A DNA stretch of 64,000 nucleotides from Phycisphaerales bacterium (GTDB lineage: Bacteria; Planctomycetota; Phycisphaerae; Phycisphaerales; UBA1924): the NCBI GenBank assembly GCA_020427635.1, contig JAGQOH010000001.1, positions 26,155-90,154 of the forward strand, given 5' to 3'. A program made the translations under genes and the position numbers. Of this stretch, positions 6,858 to 29,395 are shown piece by piece. The notes under the pieces were generated by a model that saw only the letters and a program-made list of their open reading frames with translations, did not search any database and was not told where the DNA came from. Each line of letters opens with the position of its first letter. Positions within the stretch are counted from its first letter, which is position 1.

Positions 6858-8401
6858 TCGGCGGTTTGGCTCGGCTGGGGTGCGAAGCTATTGCGGTCCA
6901 TGGTGCCAATCGTCCATTGTTGAATCGTGAAGGCCGCGACGGTGAGCAGTGCGATGCCAATGAGATTGAGCAAGATGCCCGCGCGGGCCATTTGCATGAC
7001 GTGCAAGCGCCCGGAACCAAACACAACTGCGTTGGGAGGTGTTGCGACGGGAAGCATGAACGCAAAGCTGGCGCCGATTGCGGCGGGTACGCAGAGGAGC
7101 AGGGGATCGACGCCCAGGCCAACTGCGATACCGGCGAGCAGCGTGACGAAGATGGTGGCAGTGGCGGTGTTGCTGGTGAGTTCGGTGAGAAAGACGATGA
7201 CGCCTGTCACTGCAAGCACGAGCGCCCAGGTCGGCCAGTGGCCAAGTTGCGCGAATTGATCGCCAATGGCTTGGTCGAGCGCGCTGGCCTTGAATGCACT
7301 GGCGAGTGAGAATCCGCCGCCAAAGAGCAGGAGCACGCCCCACGGCAGTTTGACTGCCGTTTCCCAGTCAAGCGTGAAGACGCGGTTGCGCAGGTCGACG
7401 GGAATGATGAAGAGTGCAAGGGCCGCGATGATTGCGACGGTGCTGTCTTCCAGCGCGGCGAGGATCGGTACGGCGCCTTCCAGTGGTTTGCGGAAGATCC
7501 ACAGGAAAACAGCGCAGAAGAAAACGTACATGACGATGCGCTCGGCATGCGATGTCTTGCCCAGGGCGCGGAGCTCTTGGCGGATGAAGTCGCGCCCTCC
7601 AGGGATCTCATCGTTGGGCAACGGGTGGAGGAAACGTGTGAGCAGGAGCCACGTGACGACGAGCATGACCAGGGCGAGCGGCGCGCCCAGCATCATCCAA
7701 TGCGCGAAGGCGACTTCGAACCCAAAGCGTTCGTTGAGCACGCCCAGGAGGATGCCGTTGGGCGCGGTGCCGATGGGCGTTGCGATGCCGCCGATTGACG
7801 CGGCGTATGCGATGCCAAGCAAGCTTGCGATGGCGAGTTGTGGCTGCGTTTTGCCGATGCGCTGTTCGACGACGCCAATAACCGAGAGGACAGTTGGCAG
7901 CATCATGACGGTGGTTGCAATGTTGGAGATCCACATGCTCAAGAGCGCCGAGGCGATCATGAACCCGGCGACGAGCATGGGTTGGCGTGACCCAACGCCC
8001 AGCATGATGGTGAGTGCGATGCGGCGATGGAGTCCCCAGCGCTCCATGGCGAGCGCCATCATGAAGCCACCCATAAAGAGGAAGATGACTGGGTGGGCAT
8101 AGGGCGCGGCGGCGGCGGTGGGCGACATGACGCCAAGCCAAGGGAGCGCGACGAAGGGCACGAGGCTTGTTGCGGGCAGCGGGAGCGCTTCGCTGAGCCA
8201 CCACCACGCGACAAGTGTGGCGATGGCAGCGGTGCGTCGCGCGGGCTCTGCGAGCGACCAGGTGTCATTCGCGAGCGCGCCGAGCAGGGCGTACATCGCC
8301 AGCGCGAACACAGGCCCCAGGACGATCAACGCGGCGCGCAGCAGCCCGGCGCGGCGACCTGCGGGGGGATTGGGGCTGGCCAAGGTCGGATCACTGGGCA
8401 T
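6854..8401 (-). CDS. DASS/SLC13-family anion:sodium symporter
   Basis: ORF 6854..8542. Polytopic membrane protein with SNTATATIF and LPVATPPNAVVFGSG motifs. Start placed at the ATG at 8401 (MPSDPTL...); the longer 8542 start is possible. Confidence 0.8.
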   Translation of the reverse strand: MPSDPTLASPNPPAGRRAGLLRAALIVLGPVFALAMYALLGALANDTWSLAEPARRTAAIATLVAWWWLSEALPLPATSLVPFVALPWLGVMSPTAAAAPYAHPVIFLFMGGFMMALAMERWGLHRRIALTIMLGVGSRQPMLVAGFMIASALLSMWISNIATTVMMLPTVLSVIGVVEQRIGKTQPQLAIASLLGIAYAASIGGIATPIGTAPNGILLGVLNERFGFEVAFAHWMMLGAPLALVMLVVTWLLLTRFLHPLPNDEIPGGRDFIRQELRALGKTSHAERIVMYVFFCAVFLWIFRKPLEGAVPILAALEDSTVAIIAALALFIIPVDLRNRVFTLDWETAVKLPWGVLLLFGGGFSLASAFKASALDQAIGDQFAQLGHWPTWALVLAVTGVIVFLTELTSNTATATIFVTLLAGIAVGLGVDPLLLCVPAAIGASFAFMLPVATPPNAVVFGSGRLHVMQMARAGILLNLIGIALLTVAAFTIQQWTIGTMDRNSFAPQPSQTAE

Positions 8402-8503
8402 GACCTGTGGAAGGTACGGCGCACTCGGACCTTGTGCATGCCAGGTGATGGAGATTCGGGGATTTGGACCGATATACTCGACACCCGCTCTTCTTGAAAA
8501 GGA

Positions 8504-9379
8504 TTGCCTCCCACCGTGTGGCTGGATCTGCTGCGACATCAATGGGCACGCTTGGCCGACTACTCGCCCTGGGAAGTGGCGGTGGAGCTTGCGATCATCT
8601 GGATCCTGGTGTGGGTGATTTACCGTTTCGTGCGCGGGACGCGCGCGGCGGGCGCCTTCAAGGGCGTGATCGTGCTGGTGATCGTGTCGTTCCTTGTGGT
8701 GCCGCTCGTGTTGCGGACGGGGCTGTTCCCGCGGTTGTCGGCGTTGTACGGGAAGGTGCTGGGGCTGGCGGCGATTGCGTTGGTGGTGACGTTTCAGCCG
8801 GAGTTGCGCCGGGCGCTCATTCGGATTGGCGAGGCGCCGTTCTTTCGGATGACGCAGCGCGAAGTGCGTCCCGTGATTGATGCCGTCGTGAGCGCATGCA
8901 CGTTCCTGAGCAAGAACAAGTTTGGCGCGATCATTGCGTTTGAGCGCAGCACGGGGTTACGCGAGCTGATCGAAGCTGGGAAAGCGCTGAATGCAGATGT
9001 CTCGTCGCATCTGTTGAGTTCGATCTTCTGGCCCAACAGTCCGTTGCATGACATGGGTGTCGTGGTGCGCGGTCCCAAGCTGGTGGCGGCGGGGGTGCAG
9101 TTTCCACTTGCCGATGCGGAAGACATGCCCGATCCGCAACTGGGCACGCGGCATCGCGCGGCGGTGGGGCTGGCGAAGGTGAGCGATGCGGTCATCGTGA
9201 TTGTGAGTGAAGAGACGGGCGCGATCACGATTGCGGAGGGGCGGGAACTTCGGCGGTGGTTGACGCCTGATCAGCTGCGCGAGGAACTCGAGAAGCGGCT
9301 CATCCGCGGCGTCTCGCCAAGCAATGGGCGGGCGATTGAAGCACCGAGCGAGGGCATGACGGCGGGTGAAGAGCCATGA
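8504..9379 (+). CDS. cdaA: diadenylate cyclase CdaA (DisA_N domain)
   Basis: N-terminal TM helices followed by FGAIIAFERSTGL...GTRHRAAVGL...VIVIVSEETGAITIAEGG-like DAC motifs. The track start is TTG; the exact start is uncertain (GTG at 8516 is possible). Confidence 0.88.
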   Translation: MPPTVWLDLLRHQWARLADYSPWEVAVELAIIWILVWVIYRFVRGTRAAGAFKGVIVLVIVSFLVVPLVLRTGLFPRLSALYGKVLGLAAIALVVTFQPELRRALIRIGEAPFFRMTQREVRPVIDAVVSACTFLSKNKFGAIIAFERSTGLRELIEAGKALNADVSSHLLSSIFWPNSPLHDMGVVVRGPKLVAAGVQFPLADAEDMPDPQLGTRHRAAVGLAKVSDAVIVIVSEETGAITIAEGRELRRWLTPDQLREELEKRLIRGVSPSNGRAIEAPSEGMTAGEEP

Positions 9380-16569: not shown

Positions 16570-16644
<75 letters not shown>

Positions 16645-16770
16645 TAGAGATAACTGTCGAGTAGCAAACGGCCTAGCGCTCGACAATGCAAGCCATGGAG
16701 GCCACTCATCGACTCGTTTTAGGGTCGGACTCGCGAAAGTCCGACCCCGAAGCAGGTCCGAGGAGCCTCC

Positions 16771-18051
16771 ATGCGTCGGATCAAAAAGCGCAAGAAAACC
16801 ATCCCTGAACCGAGGTTGCTTGGCAACGGCTCGGCGGGCGTCAACTTCGCAGGCACGCGCATCACGCTCGGTCCTTGGGATCACGAACAGCACTGTCCGA
16901 GTCCACTTGCGAGTCTCACATACGCGCACTTGCTCGCCGCGTGGGAGGCCAAGGGCAGGAAGCCGCTTCCCGGCGAAGCCATCGAAGCGATCAGGGAACG
17001 CGCACGCGCGGAACTCAACGGCGGTTCATCACGAAAGCGCGAACCGAGCAAGACCGTTGGTGACTTGATCGACGAGTATGTTCGGTTGAAGTCCGAGGAT
17101 CAGCGGCACGCGGTCACACCATCCACACAACGGACGATCCGCCATCATCTCATTTGGTTCCAAGAGCGCTACGGGGCGATGCCCGCGGAGACGTTCGGGA
17201 TTGCGCACCTTGAAGAGTCGCAGCAGATTCTCATCGCCCAGCAGCGCTGCAACTACAGGACGATCAACCTGCGCATCCGCACGCTCATCGCCGCGTACAA
17301 GCGGGGGGTGCAACTTGGATGGGTCGAGCCGACGCAGATCGTGGCGCTCACGGCGATCACACATCTCAGCGTCCGCTCAAAGGGCGTCAAGCCTCGCTAC
17401 GTCGCTTCCAGGAAGTGGAACGGCGTACCCGATGACATCTTCGAGGCGACGCTCAAGCACGTTCAGCTGCCGATGGTCCGCGATATGTTGCGGCTGCTCC
17501 GGTTGACGGGCATGCGCTGCGGGGAGTTGTGCGCGATGACCCTCAGCGAGGTGGACATGTCAGGCGATGTCTGGGTCTACATGCCAACGGAGCACAAGAC
17601 CGCGCACAAGGGCAAAGAACGACCGATCGTCCTCGGCCCGCGTGCGCAGACGATCCTCCAGCAGTACATGCACACGGACCTCAAGCGTCCGCTCTTCTCA
17701 CCACGCGAGGCGATGGAGGCCTTCTGGGCGGAGCGCCGTGCAAACCGAAAGTGGCATCCTTCGACGAACAAGGCGCGCGATGCGCGATTCCGCGAGGAGC
17801 CGAAGCATCGACTTGGCAAGCAGTGGTCGAGCGCGGCGATCGGGCGGGCGGTCACGCGAGCCTGTGAGCGGGCGAAGGTCGACCACTGGTCGCCCCATCG
17901 ACTTCGGCACGCCTACATCAACGACATTCGGCGGGAGTTCGGCGAGGAAGTCGCGCAGAAGCTTGTGGGTCACGCCAGCGCGGAGATGACGCGGCAGTAT
18001 GGCGATGCGGATTTGCGGGCGATGGCCGAGGCTGCGAGGAAGGTTGGTTAG
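16771..18051 (+). CDS. int: tyrosine recombinase / integrase (int1)
   Basis: ATG preceded by aggagc. Catalytic pattern LTGMRCGE (R) ... HRLRHAY (HxxR) ... GHAS ... RQY (Tyr). 125 nt downstream of tRNA-Pro. Confidence 0.85.
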   Translation: MRRIKKRKKTIPEPRLLGNGSAGVNFAGTRITLGPWDHEQHCPSPLASLTYAHLLAAWEAKGRKPLPGEAIEAIRERARAELNGGSSRKREPSKTVGDLIDEYVRLKSEDQRHAVTPSTQRTIRHHLIWFQERYGAMPAETFGIAHLEESQQILIAQQRCNYRTINLRIRTLIAAYKRGVQLGWVEPTQIVALTAITHLSVRSKGVKPRYVASRKWNGVPDDIFEATLKHVQLPMVRDMLRLLRLTGMRCGELCAMTLSEVDMSGDVWVYMPTEHKTAHKGKERPIVLGPRAQTILQQYMHTDLKRPLFSPREAMEAFWAERRANRKWHPSTNKARDARFREEPKHRLGKQWSSAAIGRAVTRACERAKVDHWSPHRLRHAYINDIRREFGEEVAQKLVGHASAEMTRQYGDADLRAMAEAARKVG

Positions 18052-20528
18052 GCGTCTCGATACCGCCAGTGGAGCTTCTTGGTCTCCCAGACGACTCCTT
18101 CTAGAGCCTGCTCGTCTCGGTATTGCTCAAAGAGTCGCTGGATGTTTTCTGGGAGTTCATCATCGCCGGGGTAGGCGAGGAGAACGCGATTCGGGAGTAG
18201 GTCTATCGCCACAGCGGCGAGTTTGTCTACATCCTCCTCGTCGAATCCACTTACTTTGCTCTTCACCTCACCGATCACCAACTCGCCGTTCACGAAACAC
18301 ACGAGGTCAAGGTCTGTGAAAGGTTGTTTGCTTCCGCTCTCGAACACATCCAAGGAGGGAAGCACTGCGGGGGTATGGCTGTGCATCCCACTCGAAACGA
18401 CTTCGAGGGCTTGAATCACTGCTACTACACCCCGACGCCGAATCGCTTCTTGGGCGAGCGTGTTGACCTGATAGAACCACGGAGGTTCAGAGTCAAGCAG
18501 GTTCTTCGCTCCGCAACCGGAACAAGTCAGAGTTGAGGCTATCTCGTCGACATAGACCCACTGCTTCGTAAGACAACGGTCGCAAGTGAACTCGGTGCCC
18601 ATCCGGAGAATGTCTCGGTGGATGAGCGAATCGAGTTCGTCGTTCATCTCATGGTGTTCCCAAGAAGCGTATTTCCAGTAGCCGTGCTCCGGGTTCTTTT
18701 TCCTTGCCTTGCCGCCCAGAGTGCCGAACAAGGTCTGTAGCTGGTTTTTCGTGAACCCCGGTGCATTCCGAGGAGAGGTTTGTATCGAGCCCGCGAGGTA
18801 GCTAGCCGCTTCATCAAGGCCAGCATGTTCTTGCAACTCCTCTATGCTCCGCACGTCAAGTCCTGCAAGTAATCCTGGCCTTTGCTCTCTCATCCGTAGC
18901 AACGCACGTCTCACTGACTGCTCCGTCACTCCCGGAGATAGCTTTGGACCTAGCACCATCTGATGCAGAGCCGGCCCCCAAAATGGATCGCCCAGAATGT
19001 AAGCAGTCTGATATGGCGAGCCGAATAGTCGAACGAGTGCTCCTAGGAATTGTCCTTCATCCGAGACGCGACACTTTGTGAACCGTGTCTCGCGTTTGAG
19101 ATGAACTTCTCCGACACCAGCTTGACTCATCCAGTTGTGAAAGAGTCCTCCCGGTGTTGGAAGGTGCACATATATTGGTTCCTCTCGGTTCGACATCGCT
19201 CGGCATGGCAACCGGGTCCGCTCGATCCGACGAACCGGGCAGCTAGGGAAGATCGCGGCGGCCAATCCCTGCCTCTGCGGAAGTTGCCAGATCAAGTCCC
19301 CGGAAACAGACTCGTCGATGTACGGGATGGTGAAGTCGACCATGAAGCAATCTTGACTTGACGGTCCTTCGAGGAAGTCAGGGAGGCGGACTTCGACAGC
19401 GGCTACTCCTTGGCTGACGTCGCAAAGGTGATTGCGGCTTAGGGATCTGCCGCTTGGTGCCGCCCAGTCCTGCCACATCGACGCATGTGGGTAAAAGCTT
19501 GGGGCACCGGGCAGCCCAAGGTCCCCTTCCGGAACGTCCTTGGCTTCAAACTTCAATTGCCATTGCTTCCCCAGGCCTTCCGCGATCGGAGCGAGTGACG
19601 CGGAAGCCTCGCTGCAGCTGACGACCAGACCTTGTTTCGTTTGCTGATTCCCCTCCGAATAGTTGTGGTCGATCCAATCGCGAAGTTGAGACAGAGACGC
19701 CTTATCATTCGCGAGCATCGAAGGAACCCATGCCACAGCCCTGTTGCGTTGAAGCGGATGACGAGACATTCGGATGGCTCGGAACAGCAAGAGATCATCG
19801 AGTGAGTCTCCAACCACGACGGTAAACCGGTGTTCATAGATGCCGCCCTCTGAGGTGAGCGGCCATGCTCGCCAAGCTGAGAGATCGTCGGGCGAGAAGG
19901 TGCCGCGATGTCGGTTTCCGAGAAGTAACTGGGAGAGCTTGGGCCCGTCGTAGTGGTCGAATCCGAGGTCGGAATAAGGAGCCTCTCGAAGTGCATCAAT
20001 TGTCTCTAGGTCATTGAAGAGCGTTCCGAAGTTGACGGCGATGAATCGCCCATGGATGTCATTGCCAGCGTTCCCGTGGATGAACTGAATGAGAGGTTGG
20101 AAGTGGGTTCTCGCGAGCCTTGCGATGGCCTGCGGAATCGACTTGATTCCAGTTGGTGTGTATCGCTGGAATACGCTCGGAGCGTGAAGTGCTTTTTCGA
20201 TCGGGAATCGAGCATTGATCTGGAAGATAGCGGGTGCGATATGCCGGTTGATCCACTTCGAGGTGTCGTCCGAGAGTCCGCGAAGGGCATAGATGCAATC
20301 AGGATCGGTGGCAATGAGTAGACGCTTCCATGCCTCTGATATCTCACCGTTCCTCGCAGGAACGATCGCGTTGTATCGACCGCCCCATCGCGTGCTGAAG
20401 TAGCACGAGAGCTCCTCGAAGTCCGCAACGGCCGTCTCCGCGTCGGCGTCGATGACGACGGCGACTCGCATCGGGCGAGGTGTAGCTCGGATCATAATGG
20501 ATTGGTCGGGGAGAGGGCGAGGGAACAT
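18048..20528 (-). CDS. orphan 826-aa protein with C-terminal zinc ribbon and PD-(D/E)xK-like nuclease motif
   Basis: ORF 18048..20714. ATG at 20528 lies 24 nt after the upstream stop. C-terminus has CDRC-x17-CSGC, then FTDLDLVCFVNGELVIGEVKSK (D...ExK). No family recognised in the N-terminal ~650 aa. AT-richer than the host. Confidence 0.7.
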   Translation of the reverse strand: MFPRPLPDQSIMIRATPRPMRVAVVIDADAETAVADFEELSCYFSTRWGGRYNAIVPARNGEISEAWKRLLIATDPDCIYALRGLSDDTSKWINRHIAPAIFQINARFPIEKALHAPSVFQRYTPTGIKSIPQAIARLARTHFQPLIQFIHGNAGNDIHGRFIAVNFGTLFNDLETIDALREAPYSDLGFDHYDGPKLSQLLLGNRHRGTFSPDDLSAWRAWPLTSEGGIYEHRFTVVVGDSLDDLLLFRAIRMSRHPLQRNRAVAWVPSMLANDKASLSQLRDWIDHNYSEGNQQTKQGLVVSCSEASASLAPIAEGLGKQWQLKFEAKDVPEGDLGLPGAPSFYPHASMWQDWAAPSGRSLSRNHLCDVSQGVAAVEVRLPDFLEGPSSQDCFMVDFTIPYIDESVSGDLIWQLPQRQGLAAAIFPSCPVRRIERTRLPCRAMSNREEPIYVHLPTPGGLFHNWMSQAGVGEVHLKRETRFTKCRVSDEGQFLGALVRLFGSPYQTAYILGDPFWGPALHQMVLGPKLSPGVTEQSVRRALLRMREQRPGLLAGLDVRSIEELQEHAGLDEAASYLAGSIQTSPRNAPGFTKNQLQTLFGTLGGKARKKNPEHGYWKYASWEHHEMNDELDSLIHRDILRMGTEFTCDRCLTKQWVYVDEIASTLTCSGCGAKNLLDSEPPWFYQVNTLAQEAIRRRGVVAVIQALEVVSSGMHSHTPAVLPSLDVFESGSKQPFTDLDLVCFVNGELVIGEVKSKVSGFDEEDVDKLAAVAIDLLPNRVLLAYPGDDELPENIQRLFEQYRDEQALEGVVWETKKLHWRYRDA

Positions 20529-20551
20529 CACTCCAGTATTGCAACTGAGAG

Positions 20552-21694
20552 CTACCTGCGGCGTTTGGTTAGCATTGGTAAGCACAGCACTACCAGCGAG
20601 CTTGGCGCCGGGATCGTTGCTACCCAAGCCTCTTGATGGCCGCTGGGGTTGAAGCCAGTCCCGACGAGGGTCATTCCATCCGCCGACACGGCGAACCCAT
20701 CGGTGAGATGCCACCCGGTCATGTCAAGCCCAAGGTCATCGCTGAGGAAGTCTTCGACCAGTCGGAATCCGGTGGCTTGCGTCCAGAGGAACGCCGCACC
20801 GCCGGGATACTGCGCGATGTCTGCGCGACCAATGACAACCGACCCATCATCGCTTACGCCGCGGGCTTCGCTGTCGAGTCCATTGCCACCGGTGACCCCG
20901 AGGCCAATCACGCCAGTTGCTTCTGACCAAAGGAATGCTTCGGTGATGCTGAAGCCGCCAAAGTTGGAGCCACCTGCGCCGACGATGAACGCGCCGTCTC
21001 CACTCACGCCGTAGGCCGCGGTTGGCGTCACTCCATCGCCCGACGGAAGCGCGACCATCCCGTCAGATGGTGTCCATCGGAAAGCGGCCATCCCAACGGG
21101 ACCATTTGCATTTGAACCGACGATCACCGAGCCATCGCTATTCGCAGCAGTTGCGAAGCCGCCGCGCGAGAAAGCTCCAGGAAGTGTCCCGAGTTCGACC
21201 ATCCCCTCAGACTGAGTCCAACGGAAGGGTCGATCACTAAACGTCGCACCGTAGAGCGTTGAGGACTGTCCGACTACGACATTGCCATCGCCGGAGATTC
21301 CTAGAGCTTGGCTATAGAAGTTTGCGCCCGGAAGATCGCCGAGGCCGACCATCCCGCCAGTGCTCCAGTGAAACGCTTCCCATCCATCTGGTGAGCTACT
21401 TGAGCCTGTGATAAACATGCCGTCATCGCTGACACTGTGCGCGCTGCTGGCAAATGCTCCGCCGGGAAGATCACCAATTCCGACAAGACCTGATTCGCGG
21501 GTCCAGCGAAATGCTTCTTGTCCCGTTGCTGAGTTGCCCCATCCGACAACGACCGAGCCGTCTGCACTCACGGAGCTTGCGACGCTCTGGAATGTTCCAC
21601 CTGCGAAGTCGCCAAGCCCCGTGAATGATGGTGCGGATGCAAGCACCGAATGCGCGGAGATCAGCGCAACGGTCAAAGCCGATAGCTTGTGCAT
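20552..21694 (-). CDS. HAF-family extracellular repeat protein with PEP-CTERM anchor
   Basis: ORF 20552..21730. ATG at 21694 gives a signal peptide (MHKLSALTVALISAHSVLA), about 8 repeats of S.DGsvvvG....eAFrWt...Gmv.LG.LpG, and the C-terminal IPAPSSLVVLCLPMLTKRRR. Confidence 0.8.
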   Translation of the reverse strand: MHKLSALTVALISAHSVLASAPSFTGLGDFAGGTFQSVASSVSADGSVVVGWGNSATGQEAFRWTRESGLVGIGDLPGGAFASSAHSVSDDGMFITGSSSSPDGWEAFHWSTGGMVGLGDLPGANFYSQALGISGDGNVVVGQSSTLYGATFSDRPFRWTQSEGMVELGTLPGAFSRGGFATAANSDGSVIVGSNANGPVGMAAFRWTPSDGMVALPSGDGVTPTAAYGVSGDGAFIVGAGGSNFGGFSITEAFLWSEATGVIGLGVTGGNGLDSEARGVSDDGSVVIGRADIAQYPGGAAFLWTQATGFRLVEDFLSDDLGLDMTGWHLTDGFAVSADGMTLVGTGFNPSGHQEAWVATIPAPSSLVVLCLPMLTKRRR

Positions 21695-21730
21695 GGTCCC
21701 TTCCCTCCTAAGGAGGGACGATCTTCGCAC

Positions 21731-21746
21731 TTGACGGGGCTGTCAA
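21731..21746. promoter_or_regulatory. TTGAC-N6-GTCAA palindrome (ttgacggggctgtcaa)
   Basis: Overlaps the int2 stop codon, ~37 nt upstream of the HAF gene start. Same half-sites as 22890, 27925 and 29264. Confidence 0.4.
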
Positions 21747-22840
21747 CTGCCAACGTGCGCCCCGCCCCCAAACGGCACCTGAATCGCCTTGGCGAGCCTT
21801 TGCTTGGCCCGGTCGCCCCGGCGGTCGTACTTGGAGGTCGTGACCGGGCTCGCGTGCCCAACGTGCATTTGAATGTCGCTCAGCGGTTCGCGCGCGTCGA
21901 TGAGGTCGCTGATTGCCGTGCGACGGAAGTCGTGCGGGCTCAGGCTTTCGATTCCCGCACCATCGGCGAGTCGCCTGACCGCTTGAAAGACGCTGTTCGG
22001 GTCCAACCGACGAGGCTTCTTCGTCTGCTTCGTCGTGTAGAAAACCTGCTTGCCCCCGCGCGAGACGGGCAACAACAGCGCGCCGTCACTATCACCGCGC
22101 AGGTTCACCCAGCGATCGAGCGCGATCTTCGCGCCGTTCGAGATGAAGATATGCCGTGAGCGCTGGCCCTTGCTATTGAGAATCGCGAGCGTGCCGTTGT
22201 CCCTGTCATAGTCGCAGAGATCAAGCGCGACGATCTCCGCACGACGAAGGCCAACGCACAAGAGGCCGAGAATCGCCGCATCGCGCACGCCGCGCGGTGT
22301 CTCATCGGCTTCCGCGATCTTGAAGAGCGCTCGTCGCTCGCCCCACTTGATGTAGCGCCCGGCAACCTTGTCAGTCTTTGCCTTCTTCGCCCGAAACTCT
22401 CTGAGCAGCGCCCGCTCGCGATCGGTGTTGATGAGTTCCAGTTCGCAGCAAGCGCGAACAACCCCGCGAACTGCCGCGAGCATCTTGTTCTGCGATGCAG
22501 GCGAGAGCGCTGCGCCCTTGCGGTTCCTGATGTTTCCGCCGTTGGTCGCGCCGAGGATCGTCGCCCTGAGCCTCCGCGAGTCCTTGACGGTCATTCGTTC
22601 CCAAGCGATGGCGCGCACATGATCGTCGGTGACATGCGCAAGGTCATCGAGCATCGCGCTAAGCAACCGCCGGAGCGCCGAGCGCATGCCCAGTCGGCTG
22701 TTCTCCGCGTCGAGGCCGTCGATGTACCACTCAACCGGGTCGCAGTCGCGCTCAGGAAGAACCTCCCTCACGAGTTCCCAATCGCAGACGCGAGTTCGGC
22801 TGAGAGTGATACTGGTCCCGGGCTCGGTTCCGGTCGGCAT
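21743..22840 (-). CDS. int: tyrosine recombinase / integrase (int2)
   Basis: GLRRAE (R) ... HDFRRT (HxxR) ... GHAS ... SKY (Tyr); ATG start. Confidence 0.85.
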   Translation of the reverse strand: MPTGTEPGTSITLSRTRVCDWELVREVLPERDCDPVEWYIDGLDAENSRLGMRSALRRLLSAMLDDLAHVTDDHVRAIAWERMTVKDSRRLRATILGATNGGNIRNRKGAALSPASQNKMLAAVRGVVRACCELELINTDRERALLREFRAKKAKTDKVAGRYIKWGERRALFKIAEADETPRGVRDAAILGLLCVGLRRAEIVALDLCDYDRDNGTLAILNSKGQRSRHIFISNGAKIALDRWVNLRGDSDGALLLPVSRGGKQVFYTTKQTKKPRRLDPNSVFQAVRRLADGAGIESLSPHDFRRTAISDLIDAREPLSDIQMHVGHASPVTTSKYDRRGDRAKQRLAKAIQVPFGGGAHVGS

Positions 22841-22889
22841 GGCCTGTTCCTTCCGCTGTACGGTTCGACAACTTCAATTATCGTAAAAG

Positions 22890-22905
22890 TTGACTCTAGG
22901 GTCAA
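22890..22905. promoter_or_regulatory. TTGAC-N6-GTCAA palindrome (ttgactctagggtcaa)
   Basis: 50 nt upstream of the int2 start, in an AT-rich stretch. Confidence 0.45.
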
Positions 22906-23030
22906 GTGAGAAGTTGCCAGATGAGGGCGCGCCGTGCGGCACGCTGCGCAAGGAGGGTCCGCTGTGGCGCGTTGAGCGGTCGGGGATGCCCTGGGGCGGG
23001 GACGGTTGCGCGAACCGGACTGAAGGCCTA

Positions 23031-23324
23031 TCAGGCGGCGTATAGCGAGGCGAGTGAGCGCGCGGTCGCGTCGAACCGCTCGTTGATATTGGGTAAGGCC
23101 AAGATGTCAGGCATTTGTTGTGCCTGTTCGTCGAGCCGCGCACGGATGTCCGCGAAGGCTTCGGCTTGCGAAGGAAGATCAAGAGCATCGACGTTCGAGC
23201 GATGGCCGATCATTGCGAGGGCTTCAATCAATGCAAGGCGTTTCTCGATGATCGAGCGCTGGAAGGCCTTACGCGCACGAAGGTCACGCAAAGTCGAGTT
23301 GATAATTGATCTTGTAGACGCCAC
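23031..23324 (-). CDS. hypothetical protein (island)
   Basis: ORF 23031..23471 overlaps the upstream gene. A GTG at 23324 lies 1 nt after that gene's TGA (translational coupling) and gives a 97-aa helical protein. Start is uncertain. Confidence 0.35.
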   Translation of the reverse strand: MASTRSIINSTLRDLRARKAFQRSIIEKRLALIEALAMIGHRSNVDALDLPSQAEAFADIRARLDEQAQQMPDILALPNINERFDATARSLASLYAA

Positions 23325-23325
23325 G

Positions 23326-23709
23326 TCAATCCTCGCTGCTGGACACGGGGAGTCCCTGTCGAACAAGGGCGCTCGTGTCAAGAACTCCCGCATCGAGTCG
23401 CCCGTCGATGATGTCGGCAGCGATTTCGTCGAGTTCGAGCAGGAGATCGATTCCCTCGCTTGGTTTACCAAGGCAAAACTCGAAAATTGTTTTCACTGCG
23501 GTGATGCGATCCGCAGCGTTCGTAGTCTTATCCGCGGCGATGTTGCTCAGCACGCCAAGCAACTTCGGCAGCAGATCATGCGACTCGGCAACGTCGAGCA
23601 GCCTGTGCCGCAACGTTGACATTTTGCGCCTGACGCTGTTGCCTCGCCCATAGGTATTGCCGCTTGTAAAACGGCCATTTTCGTCGCGTCCATGCGCCGC
23701 CGGCTCCAT
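23326..23709 (-). CDS. hypothetical phage-like protein (GRFTSGNTYGRG motif resembles DUF5681)
   Basis: ATG at 23709 overlaps the upstream stop (ATGA). The sequence looks like a real protein. The family call is tentative. Confidence 0.5.
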   Translation of the reverse strand: MEPAAHGRDENGRFTSGNTYGRGNSVRRKMSTLRHRLLDVAESHDLLPKLLGVLSNIAADKTTNAADRITAVKTIFEFCLGKPSEGIDLLLELDEIAADIIDGRLDAGVLDTSALVRQGLPVSSSED

Positions 23710-24449
23710 CACGCGCCTCCAGCAGCGAGCGCGAGCGGATCGCCCGAAGCGCCGCCAATGCGAGTAATGTCCTCGCGTGCGGCGGCAAGCCGCTCTTCAA
23801 CCGCGCGAATCGACTTCGACAGAGTCGTGACAATCTTCGCCTGCGCAGGTGATCGTGCGATGTTCCATTCAACCAGCAAAGCCTCGACTTGTTCGTCTGC
23901 GAGCCAAGCGCGACGAAGTGGAATCGGCGCTAGCAACAGCGATTCAGGCAACACATCGTCGCCCATTTCGATGGAGTTCCGCACAAGCTCAACAACACCG
24001 AGTGGGACGGTTACGTCGAGTAGGCCGCTCTCTCGCAATTCGCTGATAACTGCAAGCCGTTCACTGAGCGACAGCGACTTCGTTGCTCGGCCTTCGCCGA
24101 GCATCCTTGTTTCCCCTTCAAGGAGGCGGCGCAGATGTGCAAGGTATCGGATTGTGCCAAGCGATTCCAAGCGCTGGCCGTAGTTCAGGGCCAGCCGACC
24201 AAGCTCGGCCTTGCGACCAGTTGCCGTGTAGTCCGTGGAACGTCGGACGTTCGTAGCGGCCTTTTCGAGGTCCGCGCGAAGCAGGTCGAGGCGTTGAATC
24301 TGCTCGCCACAACCGGCGATGTACCGCTTCAGATCGCTTTGGCCGTCGAACGTTGAATCGGCATCAAGCTGTTCACGGCTCGGGACCCGGCCAATGCCAA
24401 ACTCGGCGGCGACTTTGACGACGTCATCCATGACGATTCCTTTCTTCAT
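23709..24449 (-). CDS. hypothetical protein (island)
   Basis: 246-aa ORF with an ATG start (MKKGIVMDDV), helical and coiled-coil-like. No family recognised. Confidence 0.55.
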   Translation of the reverse strand: MKKGIVMDDVVKVAAEFGIGRVPSREQLDADSTFDGQSDLKRYIAGCGEQIQRLDLLRADLEKAATNVRRSTDYTATGRKAELGRLALNYGQRLESLGTIRYLAHLRRLLEGETRMLGEGRATKSLSLSERLAVISELRESGLLDVTVPLGVVELVRNSIEMGDDVLPESLLLAPIPLRRAWLADEQVEALLVEWNIARSPAQAKIVTTLSKSIRAVEERLAAAREDITRIGGASGDPLALAAGGA

Positions 24450-24551
24450 AGCTTCCGCGAAGTGTTATTATCGCGCATCATCAGAGTACGCGCTCACCGT
24501 ACTTGATTCAAGGGTTTGACCGTCGATTTCCGCCTCCTCTCGGGCGACGAC

Positions 24552-25022
24552 TCAGCGAAAGATCAGCAGAAGCTCCCTGGCGCTGAACCCCGTGCCGTCG
24601 GCGTCGATCAACATCGACTCCAGGACGAACCTCAACAGCTTCTCCGCCGCTTCGTCGTCGGTGTCGAGCGTGCGAACCCCGGCCCGCTCAAGCATCCACG
24701 CGGGCGGAGCGTCGATCCGACCGGCCATGGCGCGCAGGACCCAAGGCATCATCGCCGACACGTCATCGAACCCGTAGCCGCCGTCAGGGTCCGGCTCCAT
24801 TCGAGGGACCGTGCAGATGGCGACTGCGAGCCTTGCGCGATTGATCCAACGAGGCGTGTTTCGCTCGGGCAGGGCCGCGAGGAAGATTTCGCTTCGCAGC
24901 CATTCGACGGGAGGCAGGGCCTCGCGCTCGTGATCGGGCAGGCTCGCGTCATGCGCGAGCTTCGCGATGATCTCGTCGAGCGGGCGCGCGTCCAGATAAG
25001 TCTCTTCATGGGTTTGCATCAT
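24552..25022 (-). CDS. hypothetical protein (island)
   Basis: 156-aa acidic ORF with an ATG start. No family recognised. Confidence 0.5.
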   Translation of the reverse strand: MMQTHEETYLDARPLDEIIAKLAHDASLPDHEREALPPVEWLRSEIFLAALPERNTPRWINRARLAVAICTVPRMEPDPDGGYGFDDVSAMMPWVLRAMAGRIDAPPAWMLERAGVRTLDTDDEAAEKLLRFVLESMLIDADGTGFSARELLLIFR

Positions 25023-25094
25023 TCAATTTCCTTTCAGAGGTTCGAGCCGCAAGTCCGGTTTTCGAACGGGGCGCGGATGGGCGCGCCTGGGTCA

Positions 25095-25188
25095 GTCAAA
25101 TTTGACGCGCGCACCGCGCTCGTATGCGCACGCACATAATCAATATCTCCTGCGCGATGCGTGTGCGCACGCATGGAGTGTGCGGTGC
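25095..25188. repeat. iteron-like repeats plus GTCAAATTTGAC palindrome; putative replication origin
   Basis: Perfect 12-bp palindrome at 25095-25106. TGCGCACGCA occurs at 25125-25134 and 25164-25173, with related GCGCAC/GTGCGG motifs nearby. Lies in the 275-nt non-coding gap next to the primase gene. Confidence 0.35.
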
Positions 25189-25246
25189 GTCCCAAATCGC
25201 CCTTCACATGGGCGCAAACTCGGTTGACCGCAATCCGAGCCGACAA

Positions 25247-25282
25247 GTTTGTCATGTGGTGAGCCCCCACCTCATGACAAAC
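25247..25282. terminator. strong hairpin after primase stop (gtttgtcatg..ggtg-agcccc-cacc..catgacaaac)
   Basis: About 14 bp of pairing with one T:T mismatch. The T-run (gttttt) is on the + strand; only ttgtcgg follows on the - strand. Begins 16 nt beyond the primase stop. Confidence 0.5.
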
Positions 25283-25297
25283 GTTTTTCGCCGATCC

Positions 25298-27403
25298 TCA
25301 AATGGGCAAGTCTGGCGCAAGCTCACCCCTCCAATTCGCGTTCTTGTCGAGCAACTTGTTCGCAATCGCACGGGAGAGCAGCATCGCACGACTTGTTCCG
25401 GATTCGACCCGGACACTCCCCGCCTGCTGGGTCGGCCCATCAGGGCCATCGTGCACAAGGCCAAATTCGTGTAGCACTCTCGCGAACTGCCGCTGATTCG
25501 AGATGCTTGCGAGGAGCGGCTTCTTCCGCCCTTGGACCCCTGCGACAGCGCCGTAGCGGAGCGCTAGCCAAACGCGCCGGTCGTCGTCGATCTGAAGCCA
25601 GACCTCCGAGTCGGGATGCCCCCGCGACCATCGGCCCGGCTCAGGCATGTCCAACAAAGCGAAATACGAAGCGAGCCGCGCCATCATCGAAGCGCGTTGA
25701 ACGACCGTCGTCTTCGTGCCGTCGGTCGCTTCCTTCTGAATGGTTACAACAACATCGCGATCGTGCATCAGCGCTTCAACAAGCTGATCCTTGAGCGCAC
25801 GTGCAGCCTTACTGTTTGGACCGAGCGCCTTCGCCGCCCCAACAAGCGTGTTCGGAATCATCTCAACAACGTCAGCCCAAGCAGCGGCCATCAACACACC
25901 GAGCACGCGGGCAGCTTCCTCGTGTGTGCGTGCGCGCTGCGGGTCCCAATCACTGCCTCGTAACACCGCTTCGCGCGCACCCGCCGACTTGTGATTGGTA
26001 ATCCGAGTGATCTTCACAAGCTCACCAAGCTTTTCCGACCATGCATGCTCGCCGAGCACAAACCGAGCATCCCAACGAGCGCGAATGAATTCAATCAAGT
26101 TCGCAATCATCGTCGGTGTGGGAGGCGATCCCCCCGCCAGTGTTTCTGCCTTCGCGATGGCATCCATGCGCGCTGCATGGCGAGAGAGCAATAGCTTCGC
26201 TTCCCCAGGCGCACTCAGTGAACGAATCCACGTTCGTAGGCGGGGCACATCTCGCTTCGATACGGCCCCGCCACCGGCCTCGACGAGTTCCCGAATCGCC
26301 TTCGCCGCGTCTGACCCGGAACGCTCACTCGGGCGCAGGATGATCGGAACCGTTGTATCGCCATAGGTCGCGTCCCAAGTTAGTTCGATCGCGCCTCGCA
26401 CCCTCGCAGCATCGGTCAATACAAGCTTGACTTTGCGCCACTCGCGAGCCTCAGCCTCCGGAATTGCTATGGAAATGGGCCCGTCCGGGGTCTGCATCCA
26501 AGGCGCGGGCGTCACGTCATCGGCCATCGCGCGGGCACGTTCAGACAGGTCATCACCTAGCGGCGAATATCTCTCGCGAAGATCATGGAGCGCAGGATCA
26601 ATGACGTACTTGCGCAGGTAACTGCTCGATCCGCGACTTTCATCCCACTTCGCACGAGCTCGCCCAGATTGCCGCAACAGGCTCTCAAGCTGCGCGCGGT
26701 CTTGCGACCAGAACGCCAACTGGCGAGCCAGTGCAAGATCAGCCTCGCTGTCGCTCTTGTGCCCGGCATCGCCGCCCGCGAAGAGTTCGCGAAACTTCGA
26801 GCCGTTTGATGCGTTCGCTGCGCGTTCGAGGATTTCCGCGTCAGACATCAGCGGCGAACCGAATGACGCCGAGCGAGGACGAGCATCGCGAGGTGTTTCC
26901 GGCTCGGCGAAGTATCTCCCAAACAGCCAATCAATCGCGGGCTGATTCTCGACCACTTCATCCGGGCCATCTCCGAACTTCTCGCCGGTGAAGACGAAGA
27001 ATCGATCGCGGTCATAGACTTCGAGGCCTTTGAACGACATGCCTTTGCTCGTGCGCCGCCTTCCCGGAGGTAGTGTCCCGCGCACATAGATATGCAGGCC
27101 ACGCTTCGACTTCGAGAGCTCCGTGAAGCTCCCGAGCTTGTCGAGAATGTGCCTCGCGTCTGCCGCGAGGTTGCCTTCTTCGTCGATACACCCGTCGAGA
27201 TCAATCCCGATGATCCCTCGTCCGTCAAAGACGAAACCGAGGCCATCGACATGCCTCGCTTCGACTGCCGCACGAGCTTCGCCGAGGCTGAAGCTCGTTC
27301 GCGTCACGTCGCATGTTCGCCCGCGAAGGTCGCGCGGTGCCTTGTCGCCTTTCCAGCAGACCCAGCGCCCTTCACTGAGCGTATTCGGAATGCTATGCTT
27401 CAT
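25298..27403 (-). CDS. primase-polymerase (AEP/Prim-Pol N-terminal domain + PriCT-2-like domain), no recognisable helicase Walker A
   Basis: ORF 25298..27508, ATG at 27403. Motifs GIDLDGC, SKSKRGLHIYV, LEVYDRDRFFVFTG, then KSDSEADLALARQLAFWS...RAKWDE (PriCT-2-like). The C-terminal ~370 aa are unassigned. Confidence 0.75.
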   Translation of the reverse strand: MKHSIPNTLSEGRWVCWKGDKAPRDLRGRTCDVTRTSFSLGEARAAVEARHVDGLGFVFDGRGIIGIDLDGCIDEEGNLAADARHILDKLGSFTELSKSKRGLHIYVRGTLPPGRRRTSKGMSFKGLEVYDRDRFFVFTGEKFGDGPDEVVENQPAIDWLFGRYFAEPETPRDARPRSASFGSPLMSDAEILERAANASNGSKFRELFAGGDAGHKSDSEADLALARQLAFWSQDRAQLESLLRQSGRARAKWDESRGSSSYLRKYVIDPALHDLRERYSPLGDDLSERARAMADDVTPAPWMQTPDGPISIAIPEAEAREWRKVKLVLTDAARVRGAIELTWDATYGDTTVPIILRPSERSGSDAAKAIRELVEAGGGAVSKRDVPRLRTWIRSLSAPGEAKLLLSRHAARMDAIAKAETLAGGSPPTPTMIANLIEFIRARWDARFVLGEHAWSEKLGELVKITRITNHKSAGAREAVLRGSDWDPQRARTHEEAARVLGVLMAAAWADVVEMIPNTLVGAAKALGPNSKAARALKDQLVEALMHDRDVVVTIQKEATDGTKTTVVQRASMMARLASYFALLDMPEPGRWSRGHPDSEVWLQIDDDRRVWLALRYGAVAGVQGRKKPLLASISNQRQFARVLHEFGLVHDGPDGPTQQAGSVRVESGTSRAMLLSRAIANKLLDKNANWRGELAPDLPI

Positions 27404-27467
27404 TTGGAACCTCATTCGCCGCGTCGGACCATGCCAGCAAAAGCAGTCCGCGCGGCGTTTTTCGTTT

Positions 27468-27653
27468 TCAGTTTCGATCCCGAGTGCTGATGTGCTGTTC
27501 AACATCACGCAGCTTGAAACGCCATTGGCCGCCGATCTTCAACGCTGGTAGGCGCTGCTGCGTCGCAAGCCTCGTGACCGTTCGATGTGAAACACCGAAT
27601 CGCTTTGCAACTGCGCGAGCACTCACGAACTCACCTTGTTGGTCTGCCTTCAT
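27468..27653 (-). CDS. xis: AlpA/excisionase-family HTH DNA-binding protein
   Basis: 61 aa. VSARAVAKRFGVSHRTVTRLATQQRLPALKIGGQWRFKLRDV is the MerR-like HTH_17 pattern. Lies directly upstream of the primase. Confidence 0.75.
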   Translation of the reverse strand: MKADQQGEFVSARAVAKRFGVSHRTVTRLATQQRLPALKIGGQWRFKLRDVEQHISTRDRN

Positions 27654-27924
27654 ATGACATGAGCCCCTGACAGACGCCTTGCTGCGTCTGCTGTGTTCCG
27701 GAATCCCGTTGTGTTTGGTGAGGCGTTTCGCCCCGGCTCACCGGTCGGCACCGCGCTGCTTGACCGGAAGCCGCGCGCGTCGCTCGGGATTGGCTTTCGT
27801 GCGGAGCGGGTCAAGCTCCGACCATCCCGGGCCGTCTGGGAGCGGACGCCCCCGCGTGCATGGTCAGAATAGCCATCGGAGCCATCATGTCAAGGCGCAA
27901 GTATTGCGCTGACAAGTACTTACG

Positions 27925-27940
27925 TTGACCCTAGGGTCAA
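27925..27940. promoter_or_regulatory. perfect palindrome TTGACCCTAGGGTCAA
   Basis: 16/16 self-complementary. Located in the non-coding region between xis and the right-arm cargo. Additional half-sites occur nearby (cttgaccg around 27759-27766, cgggtcaag around 27808-27816). Confidence 0.5.
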
Positions 27941-27998
27941 GTTGAGCAGGCCCACTCAGGGGCCTCAGATCGGCTCTGGGCGATTGCCAAGCCGTGCC

Positions 27999-28036
27999 AA
28001 ACAAAACGGGGCCCGCAGGAGGTTCCTGCGGGCCCC
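27999..28036 (-). terminator. rho-independent terminator of the 65-aa gene
   Basis: 13-bp perfect stem ggggcccgcagga/tcctgcgggcccc with a 3-nt loop. On the minus strand it is followed by ttttgtttg. Lies 30 nt after the stop at 28066. Confidence 0.8.
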
Positions 28037-28065
28037 AGGGATCATCAGATCCGTGATACCGAAAC

Positions 28066-28263
28066 TCAGAAGTTGCCGGTGTTCTTGCGCACCGTGCCGC
28101 GCTGAAGGTCCAGCATCGCGGCTTCGTAGTTGCTAATGGGCTTCCCGTTCAGGTTCGCCCCTGTCACAACACCATTCGGAGCATGGACGTGAAGTTGGCC
28201 CTGTGGGATGTCCTTCACGTAGTCCGTGCTCCGCCCTTGTGCCTTACCCTGCGATCCGTACAT
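28066..28263 (-). CDS. small hypothetical protein (65 aa)
   Basis: ATG start, a dedicated strong terminator and non-junk composition (MYGSQGKAQGRSTDYVKDIPQGQLHVHAPNG...). No family recognised. Confidence 0.5.
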   Translation of the reverse strand: MYGSQGKAQGRSTDYVKDIPQGQLHVHAPNGVVTGANLNGKPISNYEAAMLDLQRGTVRKNTGNF

Positions 28264-28318
28264 GGCAGTTCTCCGATCTCTGCGTTCAGATTGCGACCGT
28301 CATACGCCCCGGTCACAC

Positions 28319-28439
28319 GGGCGGGATTCTGGCCAGCCTCCATGAAAGGGAACGGGGCTTAAAAAGCGGTTCAGAGCGGTCGGTCGGCACTTCCCTTCAG
28401 GTTTTTAACGCCGCCCCTTATCATAGGGGGCGGGATTCT
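28319..28439. repeat. 12-nt direct repeat GGGCGGGATTCT x2 in divergent control region
   Basis: Exact copies at 28319-28330 and 28428-28439. The second is adjacent to the hairpin ccgcccct-tatcat-agggggcgg, just upstream of the 153-aa gene. Confidence 0.5.
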
Positions 28440-28475
28440 CTCGCCCATGGTGTACTAGCTGAGGTGGTACGTCTG

Positions 28476-28937
28476 ATGTACGAGAGTTCAACAGACCGAG
28501 AAGCCATCGACCCCTTCCATGGGAACGCCTGTAGTTGCCGGGCGTGCTCGGTGCTAATCGAGCCGGACCAAGCGGCGTATGAGGAATTGAAGCAAACACG
28601 TATCGAAGCCGCACTCGCCCGGCTCACCCAGATCTTGTCTAGCGGCCAATGGAACTCGCGCCCCAAGATGCGGAGTGTCGTCGAAGTCTTGGAGGAAATC
28701 CTCGACCAACCGAATGCGCTGCGTGTCTTCGTGAAGGCGACCTACAGCGACGCGGACGGTGAACTCGTTAGCACATGGGTGCAGGACTTCTTGGCCCAAA
28801 CACATGAGATCAAGGTGTCGAATGTGACAATCGGTAACGTTGTTCGCGAAATTCAGCGGGTTGCACAATCCACCCTTGCGAGACAGAATGAGAGTCTTGC
28901 GGAGAAGACCATAGATGGACAATTCAAATCCATTTGA
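28476..28937 (+). CDS. hypothetical protein (153 aa)
   Basis: ORF 28203..28937. Internal ATG at 28476 is preceded by gaggtgg. CxC-x2-C near the N-terminus, then helical. No family recognised. Confidence 0.5.
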   Translation: MYESSTDREAIDPFHGNACSCRACSVLIEPDQAAYEELKQTRIEAALARLTQILSSGQWNSRPKMRSVVEVLEEILDQPNALRVFVKATYSDADGELVSTWVQDFLAQTHEIKVSNVTIGNVVREIQRVAQSTLARQNESLAEKTIDGQFKSI

Positions 28938-29136
28938 TCGGACTCAGGACATCAACGCTCGCCCGTTGGGTCTTGGCCACAACCCCTACGGCTCTGTTCA
29001 ACCCACGCTTTCAAATACCGACGGTTTGCGTTCGGCGCTAAACGCTTTCTTTGATGAGGTCCACTCAGCGAGGAATCCCGCGTCTGCGCCTTTTGGTGAG
29101 ACGCACGGGCCCCAGAAGCCACCCTCGCTCTTTTGA
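28915..29136 (+). CDS. small hypothetical protein (73 aa)
   Basis: ATG preceded by ggagaag at correct spacing. Overlaps the upstream gene end by 23 nt. Low-complexity Pro/Gly-rich sequence. Confidence 0.3.
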   Translation: MDNSNPFDRTQDINARPLGLGHNPYGSVQPTLSNTDGLRSALNAFFDEVHSARNPASAPFGETHGPQKPPSLF

Positions 29137-29263
29137 AGCCCGCCTTGACACTCGTAGCCGTCGCGCACGCCCAAGTCGCCCGTTGATCGGGGGGTCGAAG
29201 TCGTCTCTTTCGACCCCGCCGACCCTTTTCGACCCTAACTCTAGCGGGGTCAACAACCGACAC

Positions 29264-29279
29264 TTGACCCTAGAGTCAA
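29264..29279. promoter_or_regulatory. TTGAC-N6-GTCAA palindrome (ttgaccctagagtcaa)
   Basis: 75 nt inside attR. Preceded by repeated tcgaccc motifs (29205-29240) and a looser gaccctaactctagcggggtc palindrome. Confidence 0.45.
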
Positions 29280-29353
29280 CTTCAGTAGTATCAGCAACTT
29301 AGTGGTTCTCAATGGCGCGTGAAATAGCGGGGGTCTCAAGCCGCTCGGGGCGG

Positions 29354-29395
29354 CTGGGGGTCAAAAGGTCGCAGGTTCAAATCCTGTCACCCCGA
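29354..29395 (+). repeat. attR: 42-bp direct repeat (tRNA-Pro 3' fragment)
   Basis: Identical to 16602..16643. The upstream sequence cannot form the D-arm or 5' acceptor stem, so it is a fragment and not a second tRNA. Confidence 0.9.

Follow-up and report, generated by a model that had tools for sequence, protein, structure and literature searches.

The window analysed here, 64,000 nucleotides of contig JAGQOH010000001.1 from a Phycisphaerales bacterium (Planctomycetota), contains a 12.75-kb island that is inserted in a tRNA-Pro(GGG) gene and bounded by an exact 42-nt direct repeat at both ends. Four copies of a short palindrome, TTGAC-N6-GTCAA, are found in this island and are called S1 to S4 (Table 1). 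The sites are real, intergenic and specific to the island, the motif recurs in conserved form in a related element, and promoter-like sequences overlap two of the sites, S2 and S4. The motif has very probably been selected as a binding site for a sequence-specific protein. That all four palindromes are operators for one such protein, belonging to the conserved backbone of the island, is on balance the probable reading.

The coordinates and sequences of the four copies listed in an earlier note on this DNA turned out to be exact. Their positions relative to the genes were also correct: S1 is at the stop codon of int2 (a gene for a Xer-like tyrosine recombinase), S2 is about 50 nt before int2, S3 is between xis and the right arm, and S4 is 75 nt inside attR. 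The enrichment that the note proposed to check by a genome scan and by shuffling held. There are four matches to the pattern in the window compared to 0.06 expected, and none of 100 shuffled sequences gave four. The whole 3.06-Mb assembly, which represents a 92%-complete genome, contains nine matches, compared to four for a reversed-pattern control. Four of the nine are within the island, all of them intergenic. Each of the remaining five is inside an off-island open reading frame (ORF) of 313-833 codons, and no intergenic copy was found outside the island in the assembly. The motif is confined to the island in its intergenic copies and in the CTAG-centred form described below, but not as the bare TTGAC-N6-GTCAA pattern.

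S3 is a perfect 16-bp palindrome with the symmetric centre CCTAGG, and the centres of its two half-site arms in the TTGAC core are 11 bp apart. S2 and S4 are one and the same 22-mer in opposite orientations, that is, exact reverse complements, and their central region is asymmetric by one base. S1 has the arms and flanks of S2 and S4, resulting in the extended form CACTTGAC-N6-GTCAACTG (21728-21749), but its centre is unrelated and lacks CTAG. Brought into a common orientation, the sites have the consensus CACTTGAC-N6-GTCAAC(T)(T). The CTAG-centred form, defined by zero or one mismatch to TTGACCCTAGGGTCAA, occurs three times in the genome, each time in the island. A genome scan for sites that deviate from the CTAG-centred consensus at two or three positions gave none, so the three copies constitute a discrete family. 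A literature search for the 16-mers found no paper.

Some of the wider claims made for the motif did not stand. It had been placed at every module boundary of the island, but there is no site at the int1/nuclease, primpol/o156 and o156/o246 boundaries. The additional half-sites and the inverted arrangement GTCAAATTTGAC are at chance level: the island contains 30 TTGAC or GTCAA words compared to 22.8 expected, with the eight half-sites of the palindromes excluded. The half-sites in the xis leader form no significant RNA structure (z = -1.8) and are unpaired in the minimum free energy fold. Finally, the putative origin has no site, so that control of replication, which had been included among the coordinated functions, is not indicated.

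Promoters were located with a scan for sigma-70-like sequence, and all of them are predictions only. The scan gave four such sites in total in the 13-kb island. One of these incorporates S2, one incorporates S4, and another is 32 nt from S3. In S2 and S4, TTGACC serves both as a palindrome arm and as the -35 box, and the remainder of the palindrome occupies the spacer. In the genome as a whole, a qualifying -10 box follows 0.87% of the TTGAC words, whereas it follows two of the eight palindrome arms (P = 0.002). The weak promoter-like site over S1 is followed by a Shine-Dalgarno sequence, GGAGGG, and then by the ATG of the HAF gene (21694) at a sensible distance. Neither strand of S3 is followed by a -10 box. 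No promoter-like site was detected by the scan between the tRNA and the ATG of int1.

A homologous element of 11.8 kb is present in the Phycisphaerales metagenome-assembled genome OFTM391 (hereafter G168), which belongs to another genus of the same family. This element resides in a tRNA-Val gene. Starting from the att-distal end, it encodes a DUF1580-like helix-turn-helix (HTH) protein, a DUF5906 superfamily 3 (SF3) helicase and homologues of o246, o128 and o90, followed by the palindrome, the int2 homologue, an OLD-family cargo gene, the int1 homologue and the tRNA. The order of the backbone genes is common to both elements. The shared proteins are 29-46% identical, int2 being the most similar at 46%; the Xis-like and replicase genes of G168 are not homologous to those of the island. 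The G168 palindrome, TTGACTCTAGAGTCAA, is perfect and has the symmetric centre TCTAGA. It is the sole contiguous conserved block when the upstream regions of the two int2 genes are aligned, the rest being unalignable, and from its end to the probable ATG of int2 there are 50 nt in G168, compared to 49 nt in the island. A second G168 copy has one mismatch, which changes an arm to TTCAA, and matching flanks (AAGTTGACTC...TTCAACTA). This degenerate copy is 28 nt from the att-distal end, in the position that S4 occupies in the island. The check for conservation in homologous elements suggested by the earlier note thus came out in its favour, both sequence and position being kept in another genus.

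A third member of the backbone, G138, has homologues of o246 and o128 (hhalign probabilities of 99.4% and 97%), with a homologue of int2 downstream of them. Three direct CAGTTGAY repeats, the contig's only three copies, are superimposed there on a strong TTGACA-16-TACAAT promoter that precedes the int2 homologue. The same region (contig L088, 1420-1475) has one inverted copy in addition to the three direct repeats, and a clear intrinsic terminator precedes it. A more distant member, the Logan contig L092, contains genes for a D5-type replicase and for o246-like and o128-like proteins, a SIR2 cargo gene, and int2-like and int1-like genes. No TTGAC palindrome was found in L092. Its CTAG-containing CTAGCGS motifs cluster at 92-351, from the att-distal end to the replicase operon, and at 8377-8397, before the int2-like gene. 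These places are equivalent to those of S4/S3 and S2, respectively, and the clustering has a P of ~0.006, but the motif was chosen after looking and the evidence is weak for this reason. Homologues of int2 with 34-41% identity are also found in the genomes G334, G448, G382 and G386, and the 20-kb loci around them contain neither o246/o128 nor the motif. The motif follows the o246/o128 backbone. The genes o246 and o128 form an overlapping pair in every case, in tRNA-integrated elements of Planctomycetota (window 23326-24449; L007, the G168 contig, 7951-9077; L088 2309-3704; L092 4306-5381; L096 9778-10914).

The operators might function as follows. Two subunits of one protein would bind side by side on the two TTGAC arms, and since the arm centres are 11 bp, or one helical turn, apart, the two arms are exposed on one face of the helix. 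S3 and the G168 site are symmetric including the central 6 bp, and so a symmetric binder fits them better than a directional recombination site does. Because the palindrome comprises the -35 box and the spacer at S2 and S4, a protein bound there would shut off both promoters, namely that of int2 and the outward-facing promoter at the att-distal end. The scan gave no promoter-like site before int1, and thus the S4 promoter would, in the excised circle, read across attP into int1, similar to Pcirc of ICEclc. Bound at S1, the protein would cover the weaker promoter-like site before the cargo genes for the HAF protein and the zinc-ribbon nuclease. S3, centred ~73 nt before the point at which xis transcription is predicted to start, could modulate the xis-primpol-o246-o128-o90 operon that starts there. 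Protein binding, a repressive effect and circle-dependent expression of int1 are what we infer from the DNA itself.

Several observations weigh against the operators proposed here. S1 has the arms and flanks only, and its -10-like box is below the threshold of the scan. The conserved site of G168 is not followed by a good -10 box, and no -10 box or outward promoter can be recognised at its att-distal site. Overlap with promoters is therefore documented in the present island only. The half-site repeats of G138 are direct and not inverted, and a strictly symmetric dimer would not use such an arrangement. Furthermore, no repressor fold or family was recognised among the candidate proteins of the island, and only two or three related elements can be compared. 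The earlier note regarded the sites as the operator set of an element-encoded dimeric protein and named Xis among the possible binders. The first part of that proposal agrees with the element-specific occurrence, dyad symmetry and conservation of the sites, two or three of which overlap a -35 box and spacer. The part concerning Xis is unlikely to hold.

Table 1. Positions in the window of the palindromes, the predicted promoters and the genes and attachment repeats of the island
Feature	Position	Strand	Remarks
S1, TTGACGGGGCTGTCAA	21731-21746	.	overlaps int2 stop codon; 37 nt before HAF ATG
S2, 22-mer CACTTGACCCTAGAGTCAACTT	22887-22908 (core 22890-22905)	-	-35 box and spacer of predicted int2 promoter
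S3, perfect palindrome TTGACCCTAGGGTCAA	27925-27940	.	between xis and right arm
S4, 22-mer CACTTGACCCTAGAGTCAACTT	29261-29282 (core 29264-29279)	+	75 nt inside attR
int2 promoter, predicted	22877-22905	-	TTGACC, 17 nt, GATAAT; 10/12 matches
Outward-facing promoter, predicted	29264-29291	+	TTGACC, 16 nt, TAGTAT; reads across attR
Leftward xis-primpol operon promoter, predicted	27866-27893	-	TTGACA, 16 nt, TATTCT
Weak promoter-like site before cargo genes, over S1	21718-21746	-	TTGACA, 17 nt, GATCGT
attL, 42-nt direct repeat	16602-16643	+	inside tRNA-Pro(GGG)
int1, tRNA-adjacent integrase	16771-18051	+	
Zinc-ribbon nuclease-like gene, cargo	18048-20714	-	
HAF-repeat protein, cargo	20552-21694	-	
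int2, Xer-like tyrosine recombinase, 365 aa	21743-22840	-	Phage_integrase; best NCBIfam XerC/XerA
o90, orphan, 97-aa helical protein	23031-23324	-	GTG start 1 nt past o128 stop
o128, orphan	23326-23712	-	N-terminal RDxxGRFxxG motif; weak small-terminase PHROG match
o246, orphan, rare unnamed family	23709-24449	-	backbone marker of such elements
o156, orphan	24552-25022	-	
prim-pol, replicase	25298-27403	-	
xis, HTH_17/excisionase family	27468-27653	-	
o65, o153, o73, right-arm orphans	28066-29136		
attR, exact copy of 42-nt repeat	29354-29395	+	

The binder is to be expected among the five proteins common to the island and G168. The products of o246, o128 and o90 are the favoured candidates, and int2, acting as an autoregulator, is the second choice. 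The o246 family comprises 23 proteins among 1.84 billion representative proteins and has no family or structure match; HMMER gave two close relatives of o246. The structure model of o128 is of low confidence and too poor for a fold search. The sequence motif of o128, together with its weak small-terminase match, hints at a packaging module of a phage satellite. The o90 protein, which is conserved in G168, is modelled confidently as a plain helical bundle and has no structural match. Apart from the terminase match of o128, searches with the orphan proteins in PDB, Pfam, PHROG and NCBIfam gave nothing, and word-index protein searches with o246 and o128 returned almost solely the queries themselves. 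Two other proteins were considered and rejected. G168 keeps the palindrome but has the DUF1580-like protein in place of the HTH_17 Xis; Xis, not being conserved between the two islands, is an unlikely binder. Core-type binding by int1 is at odds with the location of the G168 element in tRNA-Val, the anticodon stem of which is unrelated, and yet the same palindrome is kept.

The best of the other explanations, which we consider possible though rather unlikely, is that the palindromes are core sites of int2, composed either of inverted arms around a 6-bp centre or of 9-bp arms around the 4-bp CTAG. Such sites could be used for resolving multimers of the circle at S2 or for inverting the 6.4-kb S2-S4 block, and repression of the recombinase's own promoter would be a side effect. 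All catalytic residues of int2 are kept in both elements, and the protein must therefore have a DNA substrate. It is the best-conserved of the common proteins, XerA, XerD and IntI4 are the nearest to it among solved structures, and the conserved site directly precedes its gene in both elements. The TnpI IRS core of Tn4430 consists of 9-4-9 arms and is cleaved with a stagger of 6 bp, and the 22-bp identity of S2 and S4 has the 9-4-9 geometry of its IR1-IR2 core (PMC2847244). Like the TnpI IRS and Xer-dif systems, the island combines inverted arms and a short centre with a site directly upstream of a recombinase gene, the product of which is Xer-like. The central regions of S2 and S4 are identical and inverted relative to each other, int2 is bracketed by S1 and S2, and the right-arm genes by S3 and S4. 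The direct half-site repeats of G138 are of a kind that is possible for accessory sites of a recombinase.

The centres of the sites are a difficulty for the assignment to int2. Those of S3 and of the G168 site, two of the best copies, are symmetric, whereas recombinase cores made symmetric lose directionality, so that both deletions and inversions arise (PMC2847244). Only S2 and S4 have matching centres, in inverted orientation; S1, S3 and the second G168 site differ, and the unrelated centres of S1 and the second G168 site would preclude recombination of these two with the rest. The strictly conserved part of the arm is 5-6 bp, which is short for a recombinase arm, and four sites in one element carry a risk of deletion. 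The sites are dispersed over kilobases, and the island does not have the adjacent pair of direct accessory repeats found in the TnpI system. The int2 homologues of similar identity have no motif nearby in four other contexts. Furthermore, the coincidence of S2 and S4 with well-spaced -10 boxes would be superfluous for recombination. The more specific idea that int2 flips the 6.4-kb block with the replication and o246-o128 genes via S2/S4, or exchanges modules via S1/S2 and S3/S4, is improbable. If true, it would make this a two-recombinase island, having an internal site-specific rearrangement system that is separate from the system of tRNA integration.

Sites recognised by a protein of the backbone also account for the data better than structures formed by the nucleic acid alone, a very unlikely explanation according to which the palindromes are RNA or single-stranded DNA hairpins with a 5-6-bp stem and a CUAG or 6-nt loop that mark transcript ends or processing points and need no dedicated DNA-binding protein. 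All four sites are between convergent or tandem transcription units where read-through transcription is possible, and a 6-bp stem with a 4-nt loop can form. The stems are very short, however, Rfam gave no match, and promoters overlap S2 and S4. The sequence of the arms does not vary, either among the sites or in G168, and there are no compensatory changes; the CTAG loop is kept as well, which points to recognition of sequence and not of structure. The explanation that the sites are bare promoter cores, each a -35 box and spacer duplicated within the element with a dyad that has no function of its own, is of marginally lower standing still. TTGAC is indeed the -35 consensus, and S2 and S4, which match at all 22 bp, are each followed by a -10 box. 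The second arm, GTCAA, would not be needed in a promoter, and yet it is invariant in S1 to S4 and in the perfect G168 copy, deviating only in the degenerate G168 copy. In addition, S3 has no -10 box, and the G168 copy is conserved although no -10 box can be recognised at it. The least probable explanation, that a host regulator uses the sites as its operators and the island is thereby plugged into a host regulon, draws on the presence of the palindrome in two genera of one family, and it disagrees with the lack of any other intergenic copy in the genome and with the surveys of the order and the family described next.

The 300 genomes of the order that were scanned contain one CTAG-type copy overall, which is that of the G168 element. 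In 400 genomes of the family, the pattern with its flanks was at the level of the control and was never near genes of the island. The flanked palindrome was found at 40 loci in 185,579 species genomes, and the only related one is on the G168 contig. Viral contigs gave 27 single matches to the palindrome, which is about the estimated chance number, and none was accompanied by island proteins. A search of genome contigs with int2 as a single protein gave no match; a search of metagenome contigs with an int2 alignment gave one distant match and no further related element. The tree of int2 did not give a resolved answer as to the clade of the backbone int2 genes, two of its rows being poorly extracted.

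Some of the unrelated loci have repeats of their own. The IMG/VR contigs L019 (653-712) and L029 (169-228) contain three tandem palindromes (TTGACCGGGGGGTCAA, TTGACCCTAGGGTCAA, TTGACCGGGGGGTCAA) embedded in a series of GGGGTCAAAAA repeats. This series, part of an unrelated phage, comes directly after a gene for a protein with a C-terminal HTH and before a RusA-like gene, and it resembles an array of iterons or an origin rather than a relative of the island. Longer dyads built on CTTGACCCTAGGGTCAAG or CTTGACTCTAGAGTCAAG are found in L048, L065, L055, L059 and L066, which belong to Streptomyces, Spirillospora, alphaproteobacteria and Legionellales; these look like operators of MerR-type promoters.

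The identity between the two att repeats begins in the anticodon loop of tRNA-Pro. Rfam recognises a tRNA at the first repeat only. A tRNA-Pro(cgg) of 83 nt, which ARAGORN reports at 29313-29395 and for which Rfam has no call, is an artefact composed of the 3' half of the tRNA in attR and of element DNA. Comparison with an empty site in a genome of the same genus (G350) was limited to the tRNA, as the flanks are too diverged. The anticodon arm of tRNA-Pro (16595-16612) reads TTGAC-TGGGG-GTCAA and thus has the arms of the palindrome around a centre of 5 instead of 6 nt; S1 (TTGACGGGGCTGTCAA) resembles it. This likeness is probably a coincidence, since the G168 element uses tRNA-Val.

A second family of palindromes, GGGTCG-Nx-CGACCC, flanks the att sites in both the island (16722-16747 and 29192-29216) and the G168 element (L007 15851-15874 and 4295-4309). 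One copy is ~24 nt before the start of int1, and the other is 110-140 nt inward of the att-distal end. Differences in the stems between the two elements are compensatory, and there are only seven copies genome-wide. In the circle, these palindromes would be found on either side of attP, as arm or accessory sites are, or the copy near int1 would be a hairpin in its leader. The island (16758-16773) and L007 (15825-15840) have the same ribosome-binding region for int1, AGGAGCCTCCATG, although the two proteins are only 35% identical. The slot between int2 and int1 contains cargo of the defence type that is different in each element: the zinc-ribbon nuclease-like gene and the HAF protein in the island (18048-21694), an OLD-family AAA_15/Toprim protein and a 273-aa gene in G168 (L007 11128-14273), and a SIR2_2 protein in L092 (5637-8290).

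Small integrative islands with defence genes are common, but their control in Planctomycetota is essentially unknown. The comparisons made here define a rare island backbone that consists of o246, o128, a second, Xer-like recombinase, a cargo slot and a tRNA integrase. Between its members, the replicase and Xis modules have been swapped, and the defence-type contents of the cargo slot differ. One short motif would tie together the promoters of the recombinase, the cargo, excision and, after excision, the integrase. The motif also provides a handle, because a 22-bp probe could be used to fish the regulator from a few orphan proteins or to test the second recombinase.

Several known systems have a comparable arrangement of sites. 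The CRP-type site is TGTGA-N6-TCACA. It has the same 5-N6-5 dyad, with the centres of the half-sites one helical turn apart; its half-site is a different one, and the island has no gene of the CRP/FNR family and no host regulon. MerR-type promoters have a dyad that begins in the -35 box and a defining spacer of 19-20 bp. The island palindromes likewise start at the TTGAC of the -35 box and fill the spacer, and CTTGACCCTAGGGTCAAG-type dyads occur in several unrelated genomes. A MerR-type activator promoter was nevertheless rejected, because the spacers in the island are 17 and 16 bp and no full-length MerR protein is encoded.

The predicted S4 promoter has the geometry of Pcirc of ICEclc, which faces outward at the end of the element and, only once the element has been excised, comes to lie upstream of the integrase gene across attP (PMC5812530). 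Both the S4 promoter (29264-29291) and int1 (from 16771) are on the + strand, as Pcirc-like reading from one into the other would demand. Pcirc is described as constitutive (PMC5812530), whereas the S4 promoter is overlaid by the palindrome and a promoter of its type is not recognisable in G168.

In its logic, KorA of the IncP-1 plasmids is the closest analogue. KorA, a 101-residue protein that acts as a dimer, recognises a symmetric operator of 12 bp; this is present at seven promoters, and its copies fall into perfect and imperfect classes (PMC2665229). As with KorA and its operator OA in RK2/RP4, the island has a short symmetric site of its own that is repeated at the promoters of several modules (PMC2665229). 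The perfect copies of OA have high affinity and the imperfect copies low affinity (PMC2665229), and the island, too, has perfect and imperfect copies. KorA controls its own operon (PMC2665229), and this would be a further likeness to the island system. There are differences as well: the island has no KorA-like HTH protein, its sites number four and not seven, their sequence is another, they overlap the -35 box and the spacer, and the element is an integrative island of a host from the Planctomycetota. IncP plasmids, phages and satellites already provide well-known cases of a mobile element whose promoters share one operator. What the island adds is therefore not a mechanism but a fresh example of an ordinary type of control in a poorly known phylum, and a system in which it can be tested.

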